DNA of 64,000 bases from Nitrospinota bacterium. Its GTDB lineage: Bacteria > Nitrospinota_A > UBA7883 > JACRGQ01. The notes beneath the pieces are model-generated. The model was given only the letters and a program-made list of their open reading frames with translations. It did not search any database and had not been told where the DNA came from. The DNA lies in NCBI GenBank assembly GCA_016217735.1, contig JACRGQ010000052.1:1838-65837 (forward strand), in the 5' to 3' direction. The first letter of the stretch is position 1. Every line of letters begins with the position of its first letter. Shown here piece after piece: positions 21,851-29,952 of the stretch. The translations under genes and the position numbers were made by a program.

Positions 21851-22391
21851 ATTCCCGTTTTCCGTGGAAGGTTTAGCGCGACGTTAAAACTGGTTGATTA
21901 TAGCCCGAATAAAAGGATCTCTTCAATCGGCGAACACCGCGCTTCAGACGGGAAAGGCCGCAATGGCGGCACAGACCCGGTTCACGTCGTCGTCGTTTAG
22001 GCCGGTGTGCAATGGAAGCGACAGCCACTTCCCCACCCGGCGGAACCATCGCCTGCACCGCAAGGTGTACCGGCGCCGTGCCGCTGTTCATGGTGGCGAC
22101 ATTGGCGGGAGGCACGCCCAAAAAGGCGGCGGCCTCTTCGGCGCCGACGATTGAGCGGGAAAGACGGATTTTGCTCTTCATTCGCGACAGTCTATACCGG
22201 CGCATGCCCACGCCGAAACATTCAGGATGATGGGTGAGTACTGAAGTGCATCAGGCCGGTGCAATGTTTTATCTCACCAATGACACGGTATTGCACGGAT
22301 TGCGTTACATGAAATAGCTAAGTCTTTGTTAAGAAGCGGCGTCAGCTTGGCTCATAAATTGCATAAATTTTATGGATGGGGTATGTTCGGG

Positions 22392-22419
22392 TTGATATTT
22401 TTAAGGGCCGGTATATAAT
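22392..22419 (+). promoter_or_regulatory. Sigma70-like promoter (TTGATA-N16-TATAAT) upstream of the first sensor kinase
   Basis: Read directly from the sequence within an AT-rich intergenic region about 70 nt upstream of ATG 22487. Confidence 0.4.
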
Positions 22420-22486
22420 TATTATAAATGAGACTTTAAAGGTAGAATAAGTAATTTTTGGTCGTTGTGTGGGCGGAGGTGAATTC

Positions 22487-24646
22487 ATGAAATTTGCCAC
22501 AAAGCTGACATTGCTGTTTTCAGGACTTTTCCTGATTCTCTGTCTTTTTATAACGGCCATCGTCACCTCTTCAAGCACCGGTATTCTCGAACGCACCATC
22601 CAAACCCAGATGGAACGCCGGACGGCGGAAAAAATGGACAGGATCGACAAATATCTTTTTGAGCGGAACCTGGATACCAAGATGATGTCGACCGATTCCG
22701 TCTTAAAATCGAAAAATCCTTCTCCGGATCTCATTGCGGCCCGGTTAAAGGAACTTTCAAAAAACAGCGGCAGTTACATTTCGCTCTCTCTTTACGATAT
22801 GTCCAGAAAAAGGATTGTCGACACGTTGGGTCTGAATGTGGGAAAAATCCATTCGCTGTCTGAATACTGGCCCGACATCGAATCAGGCAAAGATGCCGCT
22901 TTCGACATGTATTATTCCGATTCTCTCCAACTTCCCTTATTCCACTTTGCGAAGGTCGTAAAAAATGAAGCTGGCGCGCGCGAGGGAGTTCTGGTGGCAA
23001 CGGTATCCACCGAATGGCTGGATGAAATCGTGAAGATCACGGCGATGCCGGAGATAAAAGTGGAGATAGTGAACAGAAACGGGCTGGTGATCTATTCCAG
23101 CTACGATCCGAACAGCATCCTGAAGGAACGCTCAATTTACTGGGAATATATAAAGGCCCGGATTGAGCGGGGAACCATGAGTAAAGGTTCCCGCATACGG
23201 ATTTCCGGCATGGAAGAGGAAATCGTGATCTACGGCCAGGGAAAAGGGTACAAAGATGACACGGGGCACGGATGGACCCTTATAGCCCATGTGCCCAAAG
23301 AAGTGGTTTTCGCGCCAGCCATCGAATTGCGGAACCGCCTGATAATCATCATGTCCATAATCGGCGGCTTCAGCCTGCTGGCGGTGCTGCTCTTTGCCCG
23401 CACCGTAGCAAGTCCCCTTATCAAGCTGAGCGCCGCCGCCGAGGAAATTGGCAGGGGTAACTTGGACGTGAAAGTGGCGGTTGATTCCAACGATGAGGTG
23501 GCAGTGCTGGCAAAGAATCTTAACGCGATGGCGAAAAATCTTTCCGCCTCCCGCACGGCGCTGGAAAAAGCCAAGGAAGAGGCGGAAGAGGCGACAAGGC
23601 TGAAGGATAAATTTGTCACGCTCGTGTCGCATGACCTGCAAACGCCGCTTGTCGGCATGCTGGGAATGATGCATCTTCTTCAGGAACAGCCGGAAATACG
23701 GCCTGAAAGCCGGCATTTTATTGTTCAGGCTGTTCAAGGCAATAAGCGGATGTTGCACATGATAGACCAACTGCTTGACATCAATCGCATCCGGTCGGGA
23801 AAGTTGCAGTTGAAATTGCGCTATTGCAGCGGTACCAATATTGTCCGGGATGCTGTGGCAACCGTTGAAGGCATGGCGGCGGAGAAGGGGATCGCCATAC
23901 AGAATATGGTGCCGGACAAGACGATGGTGATCGCCGATCCCGTTTTTTTGCAGCAGGTTTTTTGCAACCTGCTGACCAATGCGGTCAAATTCAGCGGGCC
24001 GGGGAAAGCCGTGACCATCAAATATTCCCCCGGTAAAAGCATGGTTTTTAAAGTTGAAGACAGCGGCGTTGGCATCCCTCCCGATTCCATAAAGAAGATA
24101 TTCAGCTATCACGAAAAGACATCGACACATGGAACGCGGGGAGAGGCCGGCAATGGCTTTGGCCTTCCCCTTTCCGCCGACATCATGGAGGCGCTCAATG
24201 GCAAGTTGAAAGCGGAATCCCGGCCGGAAGGCGGCGCCTCTTTTTCCGTCATTTTGCCAAATCCCGTGCCAAAGATACTTATTATGGAAAGCAGCGCCGG
24301 TTCATGCGATGCGTTGAAGGGTTTGCTGGAGGAACGGGGATTCACGGTGACGGCCAGCCCCCACGCCCTTAAAATCCTGGAAATGCTGAAAGGGGAACGG
24401 TTTGACTTTCTGCTGGTGCAACTCTCCGGCACAAAGGAGACCGGGGCCGAGCTTTTTCGGTTGGTCGCCCGTGATAAGACGTTGGAAGGGATGCCGGTGT
24501 TGGCGATAGATGATGGCAAATGCAATGATGATTCAAAATTAATCAAGGGCTGTGAAACTATGGCTCGTGGCGCCACGGAGACCGCGGCGGTTATCGAGAG
24601 AATATGCTCCGTGCTTATGGGCGAGGGTTCGACACGGAAGGGGTAA
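22487..24646 (+). CDS. Hybrid sensor histidine kinase HK1: TM-periplasmic Cache-like domain-TM-HAMP-HisKA-HATPase-degenerate receiver
   Basis: Two TM helices flank an approx 270-aa periplasmic domain. HAMP, H-box VSHDLQTPL, N/G boxes and a C-terminal REC-like domain lacking the acidic pocket and phospho-Asp (IMESSAG, FLLVQLSG). The GC content is well below the flanking DNA. Confidence 0.8.
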   Translation: MKFATKLTLLFSGLFLILCLFITAIVTSSSTGILERTIQTQMERRTAEKMDRIDKYLFERNLDTKMMSTDSVLKSKNPSPDLIAARLKELSKNSGSYISLSLYDMSRKRIVDTLGLNVGKIHSLSEYWPDIESGKDAAFDMYYSDSLQLPLFHFAKVVKNEAGAREGVLVATVSTEWLDEIVKITAMPEIKVEIVNRNGLVIYSSYDPNSILKERSIYWEYIKARIERGTMSKGSRIRISGMEEEIVIYGQGKGYKDDTGHGWTLIAHVPKEVVFAPAIELRNRLIIIMSIIGGFSLLAVLLFARTVASPLIKLSAAAEEIGRGNLDVKVAVDSNDEVAVLAKNLNAMAKNLSASRTALEKAKEEAEEATRLKDKFVTLVSHDLQTPLVGMLGMMHLLQEQPEIRPESRHFIVQAVQGNKRMLHMIDQLLDINRIRSGKLQLKLRYCSGTNIVRDAVATVEGMAAEKGIAIQNMVPDKTMVIADPVFLQQVFCNLLTNAVKFSGPGKAVTIKYSPGKSMVFKVEDSGVGIPPDSIKKIFSYHEKTSTHGTRGEAGNGFGLPLSADIMEALNGKLKAESRPEGGASFSVILPNPVPKILIMESSAGSCDALKGLLEERGFTVTASPHALKILEMLKGERFDFLLVQLSGTKETGAELFRLVARDKTLEGMPVLAIDDGKCNDDSKLIKGCETMARGATETAAVIERICSVLMGEGSTRKG

Positions 24647-24720
24647 ACACCATGGAATATGCATCCCTTGCGGTTCTTGCCGCGGACGATTTTGCCGCAC
24701 ACTCGGAGTGAAGGGCGAAT
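23560..24720 (+). repeat. Duplicated transmitter module + junction, copy A (pairs with 25750-26890)
   Basis: Direct repeat of about 1.1 kb at roughly 80-90% nt identity, spanning HisKA-HATPase-pseudoREC and the short downstream junction. Confidence 0.7.
24652..24711 (+). pseudogene. Vestigial 5' fragment (19 codons) homologous to the start of the REC-GHKL gene at 29050
   Basis: AACACCATGGAATATGCATCCCTTGCGGTTCTTGCCGCGGACGAT aligns at about 38 of 45 nt with AAGCACCATGGAACATGCAGCCCTTACGGTTCTTGTCGTGGACGAC at 29041-29090. It encodes MEYASLAVLAADD versus MEHAALTVLVVDD. Confidence 0.6.
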
Positions 24721-26830
24721 GAAGATACAACCGGCATCGGCAAAAATCAAAACAAGGATAACATTCCTCGTTATAACCCTGCTGGTGCTTTCTTTGGCGG
24801 CCATCGGCGTCAGCAACTATGTTCTCTACCGCATCGCGCTGAACCAGGCGGGCGAGATGCTTGGGTATACGACAAAAAGCAACGCGCTTTTTTTTGAGTA
24901 TTCCTTCCGTCATCTGGAAGAAGAAGCCAAGCATTCCGGCGTCCCTTATAGTGTTGATCACGCCCTCGCGCTTTACCGCGAACGCTTGAAAGCCGGCGTC
25001 GTGTTCGGCGAGACGGGGGAGAGCGTCATTGCGCGGCGGGAGGGAGATTCAATCCGCTTCTTTGTGCATAACCGGCTCAAGAATTCCGGCGCTCCCGTTG
25101 TTATTCCGTTCGATTCGAGCGGCACGGCAAAGCCGATGAAACTGGCGTTGGCCGGAAAATCGGGGACGGCAATAACCACCGATTACCGCAACATCACGGT
25201 GCTGGCGGCATACGAGCCGCTTCCCGCGATGAACCTCGCGATCGTAACCAAGATGGACCTTGCCGAGATACGGGAACCCTTTTTAAAAGGGGCCGCGCAA
25301 TTATTCTTTGTAATTTTTGTCATTATCATTGGCGGCGCATTCGTCTACCTCAAAGTCATCACGCCGTTGATACCGCTCCTTATGGAGAGTGAAGAACGGC
25401 TGATGACGCTTGTTAACGGCATCGATGAATCGCTGCTTTTTATCGACCCCGCCGGAAAGGCTCTCATAGTCAATGAAACCGCCGCCAATCGAATGGGCCA
25501 ATCCCCCTCCGAACTGATCGGGCATGATGTTTTCAGTTTTTTTCCACCGGAGATCGCGGCCTCAAGGCGGAGGAAATTAGGGGAGGCGCTGGAAACCGGC
25601 AAGGCGGTGCATTTCGATGATGAGCGGAATGGGCGTCATTATCATAACTCGTTTTTTCCGGTGATGGACGATACGGGACGAAACATCGTTTCGATCGTTA
25701 TCCATGCCCGCGACGTCACCGAGCAGATTAATGCGAAAAATGAAATCCTGGCGGCGAAGGAACAGGCGGAAAAGGCGACCCGGCTGAAGGATAAATTTGT
25801 CATGCTCGTGTCGCATGACCTGAAAACACCGCTTGTCGGCATGCTGGGAATGATGCAGCTTCTTCAAAAACGAACGGGAAACCCGGAGGACAACAGGCAT
25901 TGCATCGATCTGGCGGTTCAATCCAACCAGCGGATGATACGGATGATAGACCAACTGCTTGACATCAACCGCATCCGGTCGGGGAAGCTGCATCTGAAAT
26001 GCCGCTATTGCGATGGCTCCGGCATTGTCCGTGAGGCCGTGGCGATTGTTGGGGACATGGCGGCCCAGAAAGGAATTACCATGCAAAACATGGTGCCGGA
26101 CAGGACTATGGTGATTGCCGATCCCATTTTTCTACAGCAGGTTTTTTGCAATCTGCTGACCAACGCGGTCAAATTCAGCGGGCCGGGGAAAGCCGTGACC
26201 ATTAAGTTTTCCCCGGGTGAAAAGATGGTTTTTGCCGTTGAAGACGACGGCGTTGGCATCGCTCCCGATCTCATGAAGAGCATATTCAGCTATCACGATA
26301 AGACATCGACCCGCGGAACGCATGGAGAAGCCGGAACGGGTTTTGGCCTTCCCCTTTCCGCCGACATCATGGAGGCGCTCAACGGCAAGTTGAAAGCCGA
26401 ATCCCGGCCGGAAGGCGGCACCTCTTTTTTGGTTATTTTGCCAAACCCCGCGCCAAAGCTCCTTATCATGGAAAGCAGCGCCGGTTCATGCGATGCGTTG
26501 AAGGGTTTGCTGGAGGAGCGGGGATTTACGGTGACGGCCAGCCCCCACGCCCTTAAAATTCTGGAAATGTTGGAAGAGGAGAGGTTCGATTTCCTGTTGG
26601 TGCAGCTCTCCGGCATAAAGGAGACCGGTACCGAGCTTCTTCGTTTGGTCGCCCGCGATCAATCGCTGAGGGGGATGTCGCTGCTGGCGATAGGGGATAG
26701 CGTATGTTACGGAAAAAATGGGGCTGATAGCGATATTAACGATATAATGAATTGCGGCCCGGAAACCGCGGCGGTTATCGAGCGAATATACTCCGTGCTA
26801 ATGGGCGAGGATTCGACATGGAAGGGATGA
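24719..26830 (+). CDS. Hybrid sensor histidine kinase HK2: TM-periplasmic domain-TM-PAS-HisKA-HATPase-degenerate receiver (tandem paralogue of HK1)
   Basis: Distinct N-terminal sensor (shorter periplasmic domain plus a cytoplasmic PAS). The transmitter and pseudo-receiver are about 80% identical in amino acids to HK1 and highly similar at the nucleotide level. ATG 24719 follows GGAGTGAAGGG. Confidence 0.8.
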   Translation: MKIQPASAKIKTRITFLVITLLVLSLAAIGVSNYVLYRIALNQAGEMLGYTTKSNALFFEYSFRHLEEEAKHSGVPYSVDHALALYRERLKAGVVFGETGESVIARREGDSIRFFVHNRLKNSGAPVVIPFDSSGTAKPMKLALAGKSGTAITTDYRNITVLAAYEPLPAMNLAIVTKMDLAEIREPFLKGAAQLFFVIFVIIIGGAFVYLKVITPLIPLLMESEERLMTLVNGIDESLLFIDPAGKALIVNETAANRMGQSPSELIGHDVFSFFPPEIAASRRRKLGEALETGKAVHFDDERNGRHYHNSFFPVMDDTGRNIVSIVIHARDVTEQINAKNEILAAKEQAEKATRLKDKFVMLVSHDLKTPLVGMLGMMQLLQKRTGNPEDNRHCIDLAVQSNQRMIRMIDQLLDINRIRSGKLHLKCRYCDGSGIVREAVAIVGDMAAQKGITMQNMVPDRTMVIADPIFLQQVFCNLLTNAVKFSGPGKAVTIKFSPGEKMVFAVEDDGVGIAPDLMKSIFSYHDKTSTRGTHGEAGTGFGLPLSADIMEALNGKLKAESRPEGGTSFLVILPNPAPKLLIMESSAGSCDALKGLLEERGFTVTASPHALKILEMLEEERFDFLLVQLSGIKETGTELLRLVARDQSLRGMSLLAIGDSVCYGKNGADSDINDIMNCGPETAAVIERIYSVLMGEDSTWKG

Positions 26831-26890
26831 ACAACATGGAACACGTCCCGTGGCCAAATTTCCGCATACTCAAAGGAGTTCGATAATTTA
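25750..26890 (+). repeat. Duplicated transmitter module + junction, copy B
   Basis: See copy A. For example GACCTG(C/A)AAAC(G/A)CCGCTTGTCGGCATGCTGGGAATGATGCA is shared by both copies. Confidence 0.7.
26836..26886 (+). pseudogene. Second, shorter vestigial fragment of the REC-GHKL gene 5' end (MEHVPW...)
   Basis: AACAACATGGAACAC after the HK2 stop matches AGCACCATGGAACAT at the HK3/REC-GHKL junction, then diverges. Confidence 0.45.
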
Positions 26891-29044
26891 ATGGCATCCA
26901 CTGGCAAGCGAAAAGCCGCCGGTAAAAACAGCGTGCGCGCCGCTCCCCGTGTATCCCAAAAAGCCGCTCCATCCAAACCGGCCAAAAAACCGGCGGCGTC
27001 CCAAAAACGGTTGAAAGACAAAGACGGGAATATTCCTCCCGCATTGGACACAACTGGCGCGATATACGCCATCGGCGGCGTGGGCGCCGAAATTACCGGC
27101 ATTAAAAAGACGGAAGAACTCCTGCGGACGCACCAGGCCGAACTGGAAATGCAGAGCGAGGATCTGCGCCAAACGCGGGAGGATCTGGAAGTTTCCCGCG
27201 CCAAGTATTACGATCTCTATAACCTTGCGCCGGTCGGCTATTTCACCATCAGCGGGCGGGGTTTGATCGCTGAAGCGAACTTCACGGCCGCCTCTTTGCT
27301 TGGCATGGAAAAAAACCTCCTGATCAGGCAACCGTTCACGCGATTTATCGCCGCCGAGCATCAGGATAGATACTACTTGTCCCACAAAGAACTCCATGAA
27401 ACAGGCAAATCCCAGTCGTGCGAGTTGAGGATTGCGCGCCAGAACGGCGTTCCATTCTGGGCGCGTTTGGAAGCGGCGGCCGCCGTGGATGCTGAAAGCG
27501 GAGCGCCCGTGTGCCATGTCGCGATGATCGACATAACCGAACGGGTGTACGCCGAAGTGCGGATGCGGCTGCTGCAAAGCGCCATGGATCAGGCGGATGA
27601 AACGGTTATTATCACCGACCCCGATGGCGCCATCGAATACGCCAATGCCGCAGCCGAAAAAAAGTCCGGTTACCCCCTAAACGCCCTGCTGGGAAAACCC
27701 CCCCGGATATTCAAAAGCGGTATTCACGATGCGGCCTTCTATGAACGTCTGTGGCGCACCATCAAATCCGGCCACATCTGGAGGGGGAACATCATCAACC
27801 GGCGGGCCGACGGCTCCCATTACGAGGAAGAAGTCACCATCAGCCCGGTGCTGGGGGACGGTGGCGTGATTACCCATTTCATCGCCATCCGCCATGACAT
27901 CACCGAGCAAAAGATGCTGCGTCAGCAGCTCATCCACGCCGAAAAACTCTCCTCCATCGGCACCTTCGTGGCCGGTGTGGCGCACGAGTTGAACAACCCG
28001 CTTACCGCCGTTATCGGTTTTTCCAACGACCTCCGGCAGCGCACCGACCTGCCCGAAGATTTGCGGCACACCCTTGGCGTTATCGCCGATCAGTCGAAGC
28101 GGGCGGTGGGGGTGGTGAAAAACCTGCTCTCCTATTCGCGCCCCCACAAGGTGGAGCGGCGCACGCTGGATATCAACAAACTGCTGGAAAACACCGTCGG
28201 CATCCACCGCTACCGGCTGTCGGCCGACAACATCCCCGTGGAAACGGCGTTCGCTTCCGATCCTTTGCCGGTTTACGCGGACGCCGGACAGGTTCAGCAA
28301 GTGGTGGTGAACATCTTGCTCAACGCCCAGGCCGCCATCAAATCGGCCGGCGCTGACGGCGTTATCCGCATCGCCACCCGGCGGGAGAGCAAGTGGATGG
28401 AAGATATGGCGGTCATCACCATCAGCAACAGCGGCCCTCCGATCCCCATTAAAGATATTGACCGGATATTCGTCCCCTATTTCACCACCAAGGGGGCGGG
28501 GGAGGGAACCGGATTGGGGCTTTACGTCGCTTATAATATCGTGAAAGATCATCAAGGGGAACTGCGGGCCGAAAACCTGCCGGGGGGCGGAGTGGCGTTC
28601 CACATCACCTTTCCCGCCAGCGCGGAAAAACGTGCCGCCACCGCGCCCGTTTCCCAAAACGGCAAAATCACCCCCGGCATTAAAGTGCTGGTGGTGGACG
28701 ACGAAGCGCCGGTGCGGGATTGGCTCACCGGCATGTTGCTGCGGCATAGAGTATTCGCCGTGGGGGCTGGGAGCGTCAGGGAAGCCATTGAGTATTTGCA
28801 AAATGGCAGTTTCGACGCCATTGTTTCGGACTACAAAATGCCGGAGAAAGATGGTATTGATTTATACGGCTGGTTGGCGGAACAGCGGCCGGAGACGGCA
28901 AAGCATTTTATGTTCCTGACCGGGGCGGTGGAACCCCGGCTGATAGAATTTTGTGAAGGCCAAAACCTGGCCGCATTGATAAAACCGGTGGGCGAAGAGG
29001 CGATCATCGCCGCCATCGCGCAAATGCTCGCGAAAGAAGGATAA
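26891..29044 (+). CDS. Cytoplasmic hybrid sensor histidine kinase HK3: basic Lys/Ala/Pro-rich N-tail-2xPAS-HisKA-HATPase-receiver (intact)
   Basis: No TM segment. The N-terminal tail is histone-H1-like (KAAPSKPAKKPAASQKRLK). H-box AHELNNPL. The REC domain carries the acidic pocket VVDDE and D in IVSDYKMPEKDG. Confidence 0.8.
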   Translation: MASTGKRKAAGKNSVRAAPRVSQKAAPSKPAKKPAASQKRLKDKDGNIPPALDTTGAIYAIGGVGAEITGIKKTEELLRTHQAELEMQSEDLRQTREDLEVSRAKYYDLYNLAPVGYFTISGRGLIAEANFTAASLLGMEKNLLIRQPFTRFIAAEHQDRYYLSHKELHETGKSQSCELRIARQNGVPFWARLEAAAAVDAESGAPVCHVAMIDITERVYAEVRMRLLQSAMDQADETVIITDPDGAIEYANAAAEKKSGYPLNALLGKPPRIFKSGIHDAAFYERLWRTIKSGHIWRGNIINRRADGSHYEEEVTISPVLGDGGVITHFIAIRHDITEQKMLRQQLIHAEKLSSIGTFVAGVAHELNNPLTAVIGFSNDLRQRTDLPEDLRHTLGVIADQSKRAVGVVKNLLSYSRPHKVERRTLDINKLLENTVGIHRYRLSADNIPVETAFASDPLPVYADAGQVQQVVVNILLNAQAAIKSAGADGVIRIATRRESKWMEDMAVITISNSGPPIPIKDIDRIFVPYFTTKGAGEGTGLGLYVAYNIVKDHQGELRAENLPGGGVAFHITFPASAEKRAATAPVSQNGKITPGIKVLVVDDEAPVRDWLTGMLLRHRVFAVGAGSVREAIEYLQNGSFDAIVSDYKMPEKDGIDLYGWLAEQRPETAKHFMFLTGAVEPRLIEFCEGQNLAALIKPVGEEAIIAAIAQMLAKEG

Positions 29045-29049
29045 GCACC

Positions 29050-29952
29050 ATGGAACATGCAGCCCTTACGGTTCTTGTCGTGGACGACGATGAAGCGGCA
29101 CGCCTTTACCTCGCCATCGTCCTTCGCAAAAACGGCTTCGCCGTGCTGGAAGCGCCGGACGGGGCCGCGGCTATAAAGATCATGCGGGAGCGGGACAAGG
29201 AGATAGCCGCGGTGATCAGCGATATCCGCATGCCCAACATCGACGGGTTGAAGCTGGCCGAGCTGAACTACCAGAACGGCTTCCTGCCGTTTATTGCCTG
29301 TACGATGATCTCGGACGCGGCTGCGGCGCTTACGTTGCTCAAATTCGGCGTGCGCGACTATGTGGTGAAGCCGGTGGAGGAAACCGTGCTGGTGAACACG
29401 GTGCGCGACGCCATCGGGCGGCGCAATCTCCCCCGCCTGTTCGCCGACGACGAGACCCCCCTCCCCGGCAATATGGGGGTCATCACCATCTCGGCCCGCT
29501 TTGCCGCGGTACACCGTGCGCGCGGATGGCTGGAGTTGAAGGCAAGCGGCATCATGTCGCCGGTCGAGCAGCGTCAATTTCTCGCCTTTGCTTCGGAATT
29601 CCTGATGAATGCCTACGAGCACGGCAGCCTGATGCTCACGGAAGAGGAAAAATCGGCGTTGCTGGAAAGCGGGGGATACCACGATGAATTGCGCCGCCGG
29701 GAACTGGAGTGCAAAGCGAAGATAGAAGTGGCGGTCTCCATCGTGGGGAACGAGATCGCCATCAGCGTGACCGATCCCGGGTATGGATTCGATTATAAAC
29801 GGTATCAGGAGATGTCCGAGGCCGAAATGCTCGACCGCCTTATCATGCCGAACGGGCGCGGCATCCAGATGGCGATGCAGTACTTCGACAGCATCACCTT
29901 CAGCAAAGGCGGGGCGGGGGTGCTGCTCACAAAAAAGATGCCGAAAGGTTGA
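29050..29952 (+). CDS. Receiver domain fused to anti-sigma-factor-type GHKL Ser/Thr kinase-like domain (HATPase_c_2, RsbW/SpoIIAB-like)
   Basis: REC (VLVVDDDE...ISDIRMPNIDG). C-terminal N-box NAYEHG, G1 VTDPGYGF and G2 NGRGIQM. Confidence 0.7.
   Translation: MEHAALTVLVVDDDEAARLYLAIVLRKNGFAVLEAPDGAAAIKIMRERDKEIAAVISDIRMPNIDGLKLAELNYQNGFLPFIACTMISDAAAALTLLKFGVRDYVVKPVEETVLVNTVRDAIGRRNLPRLFADDETPLPGNMGVITISARFAAVHRARGWLELKASGIMSPVEQRQFLAFASEFLMNAYEHGSLMLTEEEKSALLESGGYHDELRRRELECKAKIEVAVSIVGNEIAISVTDPGYGFDYKRYQEMSEAEMLDRLIMPNGRGIQMAMQYFDSITFSKGGAGVLLTKKMPKG

Follow-up and report, generated by a model that had tools for sequence, protein, structure and literature searches.

Relics of a regulator gene start between tandem histidine kinase genes in a Nitrospinota bacterium

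Four co-oriented genes, three of them for histidine kinases (HK1, HK2 and HK3) and one for the regulator REC-GHKL, lie behind a promoter-like site in a 64,000-nucleotide (nt) stretch of a Nitrospinota bacterium genome (GenBank assembly GCA_016217735.1, contig JACRGQ010000052.1, positions 1,838 to 65,837), which was analysed whole and is called the window below. Directly after HK1, and again directly after HK2, stand short stubs (f1 and f2) that repeat the beginning of the REC-GHKL gene. Comparison of the sequences confirms both as true relics of this gene start and supports an earlier arrangement in which HK1 and HK2 each lay directly upstream of REC-GHKL. How the relics came to lie between the kinases is the question addressed here.

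The kinase locus and its relatives

The promoter-like site upstream of HK1 is likely the start of an HK1-HK2-HK3-REC operon (Table 1). The genome is a metagenome assembly of an uncultured Nitrospinota bacterium, and HK1, HK2 and REC-GHKL are 100% identical to NCBI proteins that share a single 74-kb contig. A scan of the window found no + strand terminator-like site at the junctions 24647-24718, 26831-26890 and 29045-29049, the only + strand sites of this kind lying at 22247, 22520 and 25508, and no + strand promoter-like or terminator-like site within either stub spacer. Related loci, which share the same upstream sugar-nucleotide genes, were recovered from several Nitrospinales assemblies with the regulator as probe (Table 2). 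REC-GHKL is conserved among them at 85-92% amino acid (aa) identity; the kinase set upstream of it differs in the window, L001, L003, L007, L115/L120, L121 and the P0004 locus. Orthologues of HK1 are present in L001, L003, L120 and L121, those of HK3 in L007, L115 and L121, and a relative of HK3 in L005.

Table 1. Features of the kinase locus in window coordinates (ORF, open reading frame).
Feature	Coordinates	Strand	Description
Promoter-like site	22392..22419	+	TTGATA-16-TATAAT, 11/12 match, upstream of HK1
HK1	22487..24646	+	dCache-HAMP-HisKA-HATPase plus C-terminal pseudo-receiver; 719 aa, NCBI model P0047
Transmitter-half repeat, copy 1	23570..24657	+	HisKA through stop codon to stub ATGGAA
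Stub f1	24641..24690	+	Last HK1 codon, stop, 5-nt spacer, REC-GHKL nt 1-39 (ATG 24652)
Mini-ORF from f1 ATG	24652..24711	+	19 codons, MEYASLAVLAADDFAAHSE then stop; stop 7 nt before HK2 start
HK2 leader	24689..24718	+	Non-REC; homologous to sequence preceding HK2 orthologues in L001 and L003
HK2	24719..26830	+	Periplasmic sensor-PAS-HisKA-HATPase plus pseudo-receiver; 703 aa, NCBI model P0062
Transmitter-half repeat, copy 2	25754..26841	+	82% nt identity over 1090 nt with copy 1
Stub f2	26825..26848	+	Last HK2 codon, stop, 5-nt spacer, REC-GHKL nt 1 to ~9-16 (ATG 26836)
Mini-ORF from f2 ATG	26836..26886	+	16 codons, MEHVPWPNFRILKGVR then stop; stop 4 nt before HK3 start
HK3 leader	26849..26890	+	Homologous to leader of L005 HK3-type gene
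HK3	26891..29044	+	PAS-PAS-HisKA-HATPase plus true receiver; 717 aa
Live junction	29039..29087	+	HK3 stop, 5-nt spacer, intact REC-GHKL start; template matched by the stubs
REC-GHKL	29050..29952	+	Receiver plus HATPase_c_2 (RsbW/SpoIIAB-like); 300 aa, NCBI P0001 100% identical

Table 2. Gene order at related loci. HK1N/HK2C hybrids join an HK1 sensor half to an HK2-like transmitter tail.
Locus	REC-GHKL aa identity to window	Gene order
L001/L002	86%	HK2-type, 355 nt, HK1-type, REC
L003/L004	85%	HK1-type, 125 nt, HK2-type, REC
L007	91%	damaged HK1N/HK2C hybrid, HK3-type (946 aa), REC
L115	92%	HK3-type (701 aa), REC, DUF2231
L120 (L115's sample)		HK1N/HK2C hybrid, stub, contig end
L121		HK1N/HK2C hybrid, stub, HK3-type
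P0004 locus	89%	long PAS kinase, HK2-type, REC
P0051 locus (sample ERZ27297709)		HK1-type, 258 nt, rubredoxin; no REC-GHKL

Two stubs of the regulator start

The longer stub, f1, matches the live junction without gaps at 42 of 49 nt (24641-24689 against 29039-29087). Its local alignment score of 35 lies far above those of 1000 shuffles (mean 7.4, maximum 13; blastn E 5e-11), and similarity below that of random GC-rich sequence, which the original prediction, made from the letters of this DNA alone, had named as its refutation, is not what the alignment shows. When the 49-mer was scanned against both strands of the window (127,904 positions), the live junction scored 49 against itself and f1 42, the next position reaching 30 and all others at most 27. 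The original prediction had put the match after the HK1 stop at about 38 of 45 nt, close to our count of 37 (24647-24691 against 29045-29089), and had rightly seen the ATG and the codons M-E-[YH]-A-[SA]-L-[AT]-V-L-[AV]-[AV]-D-D as kept; the 5-nt spacer is kept as well. The stub reads M-E-Y-A-S-L-A-V-L-A-A-D-D against M-E-H-A-A-L-T-V-L-V-V-D-D in the live gene, and the similarity is at the nucleotide level, synonymous positions included. At its breakpoint (24689/24690) nt 39 of REC-GHKL is joined, with a 2-nt overlap (AT), to the HK2 leader, which aligns to the L001 leader (window 24689 to L001 5338) with a score of 11.5 that 0.05% of shuffles reach.

The shorter stub, f2, agrees with the live junction at 16 of 19 nt (26825-26843 against 29039-29057), a match that is not significant alone; f1 and f2 are the sole non-self positions in the window with at least 15 of 19 identical, and both stand in the same register, starting on the last codon of the kinase. 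Behind the hybrid kinase of L120 f2 recurs at 16 of 18 nt (0.1% of shuffles as high), and it recurs behind that of L121 too. The joint to the HK3 leader falls within about 26844-26849, with a possible TCCC microhomology at 26844-26847. Because 26849-26887 is HK3 leader, homologous to that of L005 (score 18; 0 of 2000 shuffles as high), f2 is limited to REC-GHKL nt 1 to about 9-16, or some 3-5 codons. The original prediction had placed a shorter fossil, with about 16 nt kept, at 26831-26886; the stub is real, and only about 13-17 nt of that interval derive from REC-GHKL, the remainder being the HK3 leader.

A decayed f1 also recurs in L003, where its similarity to the f1 of the window is reached by 0.7% of shuffles and the two have GGAATAT, CGGTTCT and GCC blocks in common; compared directly with the REC-GHKL start, the L003 spacer shows no significant similarity. 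After the HK2-type gene of L001 there is no significant stub similarity.

For annotation, f1 has the consequence that ORF finders, misled by its relic ATG region, begin HK2 20 codons too early. The ORF-finder start at 24659 is an ATG within the TATGCA of f1, in a frame that differs from that of the stub ATG, and it had already been called an artefact, with the true start at 24719. The 703-aa model P0062 agrees, as do orthologues of 704-705 aa that start equivalently.

Live junctions and rearrangements at related loci

Both stubs have live counterparts in sister genomes. Window positions 22426-24690 are collinear (81%) with L001 7774-10039, that is, with an HK1-type gene followed by the first 39 nt of an intact REC-GHKL. 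From 24689 to 26806 the window aligns to the HK2-type gene of L001, beginning 29 nt upstream of its start codon, and the leader there is preceded by an AT-rich spacer and no stub. In L003 the collinear segment (window 24668-26843, L003 3104-5285) ends 8 nt into the REC-GHKL gene. Intact REC-GHKL thus directly abuts the HK1 orthologue in L001 and the HK2 orthologue in L003.

The comparison of orthologous loci that the original prediction had proposed as a way to find the unduplicated state gave the live HK1-REC and HK2-REC junctions; no single-kinase state was found at this locus among relatives with readable DNA. A metagenome scan for that state returned distant relatives only, an exact-protein look-up with the REC-GHKL of the window gave no match, and no longer REC-GHKL remnant stands between kinases in any relative examined.

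The pairing of HK3-type kinases with REC-GHKL extends beyond this locus. In L005, which has another context (rpsB, tsf), an HK3-type kinase (1035 aa) lies directly upstream of a REC-GHKL paralogue (81%), and the more distant paralogues of L010 and L012 are likewise downstream of HK3-type kinases. Orphan paralogues with no kinase upstream (L116 2065-2154, L118 9911-10000 and L036 1554-1643) carry, immediately before their start codons, what is left (16-80 nt) of the 3' end of an HK3-type kinase gene. These mirror-image fossils suggest that HK3-type kinase plus REC-GHKL is the old pairing of the family.

HK1N/HK2C hybrids occupy L007 5234-7004, L120 4696-6855 and L121 602-2761, and such genes would be expected if the 1.1-kb transmitter repeats described below had recombined and deleted the sequence between them. 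Together with the reversed kinase order of L001 and the gene conversion seen in the window, the hybrids mark this, on the sequences compared, as a demonstrably recombination-prone locus. Three details of these relatives may be added. The L007 hybrid has an internal deletion of its receiver-like tail, plus a 10-N scaffold gap. The 355-nt inter-kinase spacer of L001 (7482-7835) holds a short GC-rich palindromic element (…GTCATTGCGAGGCCATCGAAGATGGCTGCGGCAATC…), to all appearance a small repeat or an inserted mobile element. The end of L120 (6920-6952) and the start of L115 (1-30) are reverse complements (…GGAAGTGCACCAC and GTGGTGCACTTCC…), and the two contigs are probably adjacent, meeting immediately upstream of the HK3-type gene at an inverted repeat that can form a hairpin.

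Relationships among the kinases

The similarity of HK1 and HK2 is confined to the 1.1-kb transmitter half (Table 1) and begins abruptly at the helix preceding HisKA; the sensor halves, formed by the N-terminal 345-361 residues, show no relationship (E 0.34). Between HK3 and either of the other two, nucleotide similarity is limited to the 49-nt junction; at the protein level the transmitters of HK3 and HK1 have 25% aa identity. By its sequence, HK3 is a separate kinase lineage and no duplicate of the other two. Homology along the full length of the unit, as expected of a tandem duplication of kinase plus regulator, is not found among HK1, HK2 and HK3.

At 4-fold degenerate sites the HK1 and HK2 transmitter halves stand at a Jukes-Cantor (JC) distance of 0.19 in the window, as against 0.52-0.64 in L001 and L003. 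The central part of the window repeats reaches 87-93% nt identity, and over the last 80 nt, the stop codon and ATGGAA, HK1 and HK2 of the window are identical at 71 of 80 positions, compared with 63 and 57 of 80 to their respective orthologues. This pattern indicates recent mosaic gene conversion between the two transmitter halves, apparently in the window lineage only, with one conversion tract that takes in the final 69 nt, the stop codon and the stub ATGGAA.

The sensor region of the HK3-type kinases is strongly variable, with lengths of 717 aa in the window, 701 in L115, 946 in L007 and 1035 in L005 (regions compared: window 26891-27600, L115 73-330, L007 7155-8120, L005 6887-8050); that of L115 has a different, hydrophobic N-terminus, and HK3 of the window is without the PAS-containing segments found in its L007 and L005 counterparts. 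The pseudo-receivers at the C-termini of HK1 (24230-24646) and HK2 (26414-26830) give partial, sub-threshold matches to Pfam Response_reg. Aligned to the true receiver of HK3 they have ES and not DD as the acidic pair, and the phospho-acceptor Asp is replaced by Gln (LVQLSG against VSDYKMP in HK3).

Age and decay of the stubs

At 4-fold sites REC-GHKL of the window is JC 0.20 from that of L115 and 0.38-0.40 from those of L007, L001 and L003, and the epimerase gene gives 0.21-0.29. The f1 stub differs from the live REC-GHKL start at 5 of 38 positions (JC about 0.15, with the wide error bars of 38 nt). The 4-fold distance of 0.38 between the window and L003 corresponds to about 0.19 per branch, and the divergence of f1 fits what neutral change would build up along a single branch from about the time when these genomes last shared an ancestor, so that no selection or refreshing need be invoked.

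Origin of the stubs and alternative explanations

We think it fairly probable that the stubs are scars of illegitimate recombination, left by two separate events that stacked cassettes of leader plus kinase gene before a retained regulator. In each event, a cassette would have come to lie between the regulator and a kinase already present; the break would fall slightly within the 5' end of the regulator, an intact copy of which would be retained downstream of the joint. The event for HK2 would have fused REC-GHKL nt 39 to position -30 of the HK2 leader and that for HK3 nt ~9-16 to about -45 of the HK3 leader, the two giving the array HK1, HK2, HK3, REC-GHKL. The most likely process would be one-ended homologous recombination anchored in the conserved flank and completed by an illegitimate join on the opposite side; it could have run as homology-facilitated illegitimate recombination, or as unequal recombination between alternative alleles (HK1-REC, HK2-REC and HK3-REC). 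Since then the stubs would have decayed roughly neutrally, and no complete extra regulator gene is needed at any stage. Two illegitimate joints are the simplest account because the leaders directly abut the stubs, HK3 is not a duplicate and there is no other REC-GHKL sequence in the spacers. Recombination at this junction had been offered as the second of two possibilities in the original prediction, and it is the one that fits best, each stub running into the next kinase's own leader.

Several points weigh against this account. The comparison loci are all metagenome assemblies, and the mechanism is read solely from what the events left behind. The joints have minimal microhomology (AT and possibly TCCC), which does not discriminate between mechanisms. 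A chimeric REC-GHKL in the window, with an L005-like and hence donor-like 5' part, was looked for by sliding identity and no such segment appeared; a homologous crossover, if any, must therefore be invisible or lie on the other flank. The distances between the window and L005 at 4-fold sites (JC 0.62 for HK3 and 0.81 for REC-GHKL) would suit an old HK3-REC pair whose members have diverged together at the locus. HK3 may have entered the lineage to which the window, L115 and L007 belong, or L001 and L003 may have lost it when a stub recombined with the live REC-GHKL start, which would regenerate a perfect junction. Finally, the reversed order of L001 needs a separate event or alternative alleles, and no single step explains it.

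A broader proposal, which we put forward tentatively and hold to be possible, is that the REC-GHKL start serves in these Nitrospinales as a recurrent anchor at which kinase cassettes are exchanged and stacked before one shared regulator, through the combined homologous and illegitimate recombination of alternative alleles described above, that recombination between stub and gene later removes cassettes, and that the start sites of the stubs may aid expression of the next kinase. If true, the displacement-array mechanism, hitherto described for toxin/immunity loci, would also build and remodel networks in which many kinases feed one regulator.

Duplication of a whole unit, in which a kinase with a complete REC-GHKL was duplicated twice in tandem and the extra regulators were deleted to 39 nt and about 13 nt, was the other possibility raised at the outset, and we regard it as unlikely. 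It would explain why the stubs begin exactly at the regulator start with the upstream context kept; the HK1 and HK2 transmitter halves are moreover paralogous, with a JC of 0.5-0.65 in L001 and L003 that is slightly older than the species split, and the age of f1 is compatible with their divergence. HK3, however, is no copy of HK1 or HK2, the sensor halves of those two are unrelated, and what survives of REC-GHKL is its extreme 5' end only, abutting the leader of the next kinase. Two extra deletions would be required, each ending exactly at a leader, which is less parsimonious, and no relative has an intermediate with a longer piece of REC-GHKL. With kinases that are not copies of one another and spacers that hold no further REC-GHKL sequence, the ancestral repeat of kinase plus whole regulator, its extra copies later lost, is not supported.

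For f1 taken singly, the same order of parts could come from an in-place tandem duplication running from the leader to REC-GHKL nt 39, with later replacement of the sensor half and leader in one copy. An end inside REC-GHKL would yield exactly kinase-stub-leader-kinase-REC, the transmitters are homologous through the stop codon, and kinase families usually expand by duplication with subsequent shuffling of their sensor domains (PMC1630713). We nevertheless judge this history improbable: the whole N-terminal 345-361 codons and the leader must be replaced later, f2 and HK3 are left unexplained, and the leaders of HK1 and HK2 are not convincingly related. Homology of those leaders was considered as evidence of duplication and set aside, the 'AATTTTTGG' resemblance occurring only in the HK1 leader of the window and in no other HK1 leader.

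Rather than scars, the stubs might be functional, their ribosome-binding sites and ATGs starting mini-ORFs that relay ribosomes to HK2 and HK3 by translational coupling. A Shine-Dalgarno-like GGAAGGG(G/A) (GGAAGGGG or GGAAGGGA) stands 8 nt before each intact ATG, the mini-ORF stops lie close to the starts of HK2 and HK3 (Table 1) beside GGAG or AAAGGAG, and the spacers are free of promoter-like and terminator-like sites on the + strand. Set against this, in L003 a gap of 60 nt separates the end of the equivalent ORF from the HK2-type start, a 1-nt difference in L121 puts the f2 ATG in the frame of the HK3-type gene, and L120 diverges after 13 nt; the decay of f1 matches neutral expectation, and by our calculation, (61/64)^n, an open frame of 16-19 codons has a random chance of about 40-45%. 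A conserved coupling mini-ORF is ruled out, the arrangement not being kept in L003, L120 and L121, and we give the functional reading a low probability overall. An RNA element was also considered and rejected (folding z-scores -0.11, -0.55 and +0.63; no Rfam match over the spacers at E <= 1). The stubs are most likely inert today. A separate observation concerns L121 2767-2823, where the relic ATG is in frame with the HK3-type start with no stop between, and where gene callers, and possibly ribosomes, could begin the HK3-type kinase 18 codons early at the fossil start.

Chance or convergent similarity (through a shared ribosome-binding context or similar receiver N-termini) and assembly artefact are effectively refuted: conservation of the junction motif GG(A/G)TAA-ACACC-ATGGAACAT in many REC-GHKL paralogues means that the similarity is partly constraint on the live copy, but the f1 match is unique among the window positions scanned, includes synonymous sites and is collinear with the live junctions of relatives, and the copies are diverged, not identical, with the same structures in the independent assemblies L003/L004, L001/L002, L120 and L121.

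The regulator protein and the flanking genes

In a sequence search REC-GHKL matched PDB entry 9qih, 'SenB', over its full length (residues 8-297, E 1.3e-9); no paper on 'SenB' came up in the literature library searched. With its receiver and HATPase_c_2 domains the live gene is like those of the receiver-coupled RsbW/SpoIIAB-type GHKL proteins, a likeness that concerns the gene and not the stubs. Vibrio fischeri SypE is a protein of this type, from partner-switching pathways.

The upstream flank consists of sugar-nucleotide genes; downstream lie DUF2231, a rubrerythrin-like gene, a REC-TPR gene and accA. L001, L007 and the P0051 locus have a DegT-type aminotransferase gene upstream of the kinases, of which the window retains only dispersed pieces (21949-22222); these match L001 4069-4149, 4958-5071 and 5135-5232 and imply an internal deletion of ~800 nt. 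The 112-aa ORF at the same window positions has no Pfam match. In L120 merely ~330 nt separate the epimerase gene from the HK1-type gene.

Comparison with known systems

The stubs are a known kind of feature, and what this locus adds is modest, namely that breakpoints and live counterparts are preserved together. The stacking of cassettes by illegitimate recombination that we favour has its nearest parallel in the sequential displacement arrays of orphan immunity genes in Vibrio cholerae type VI secretion system clusters (Kirchberger et al. 2017, PMC5361080), whose formation is proposed there to be 'akin to' homology-facilitated illegitimate recombination and whose example of a displaced piece is an effector 3' end shifted back. 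Orphaned 3' regions of Rhs loci, for which the passages of PMC5361080 that treat them cite Jackson et al. 2009, Zhang et al. 2012 and Poole et al. 2011, are a further case. Like the arrays, the present locus has a conserved anchor beside variable cassettes, and stubs of the anchor are found at its joints; new cassettes come to stand next to the anchor, older ones are pushed outward and stay, pieces of the displaced gene remain at the joints, and no integrase or transposase is evident. Unlike the arrays, its cassettes are sensor kinases and not toxins or immunity genes, its anchor is a response regulator and lies downstream, and the displaced genes are complete, co-oriented and in one operon, with just two events.

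Truncated pseudogene fragments at gene junctions generally share with f1 and f2 a short, decaying 5' copy, a sharp breakpoint and the coding of a mini-ORF at most. Three features that define such pseudogenes are present here: similarity to a parent gene, an intact gene at the orthologous position, and truncation, the ORFs having 19 and 16 codons against 300 aa; evolution free of constraint would fit the divergence of f1. The locus differs from such fragments in having two independent stubs of one gene start, in one operon and in the same register, behind different kinases, and in the preservation of live versions of both junctions in sister genomes.

Histidine kinases are known for lineage-specific expansion with sensor-domain shuffling, by a mechanism stated to be unclear (Alm, Huang & Arkin 2006, PMC1630713). 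In keeping with that study, HK1 and HK2 share a recently diverged transmitter and have unrelated sensors, the HK3-type sensors are polymorphic in length, and hybrids arise by recombination. Expanded kinases are usually orphans away from their regulator (PMC1630713), whereas here paralogues have accumulated in tandem before one regulator, with their breakpoints preserved. The stubs, read together with the live junctions of the sister genomes, fix two kinase-accretion breakpoints to within a few nt at the 5' edge of a shared regulator. They offer a concrete picture of how an operon with several kinases to one regulator could be assembled and later trimmed.

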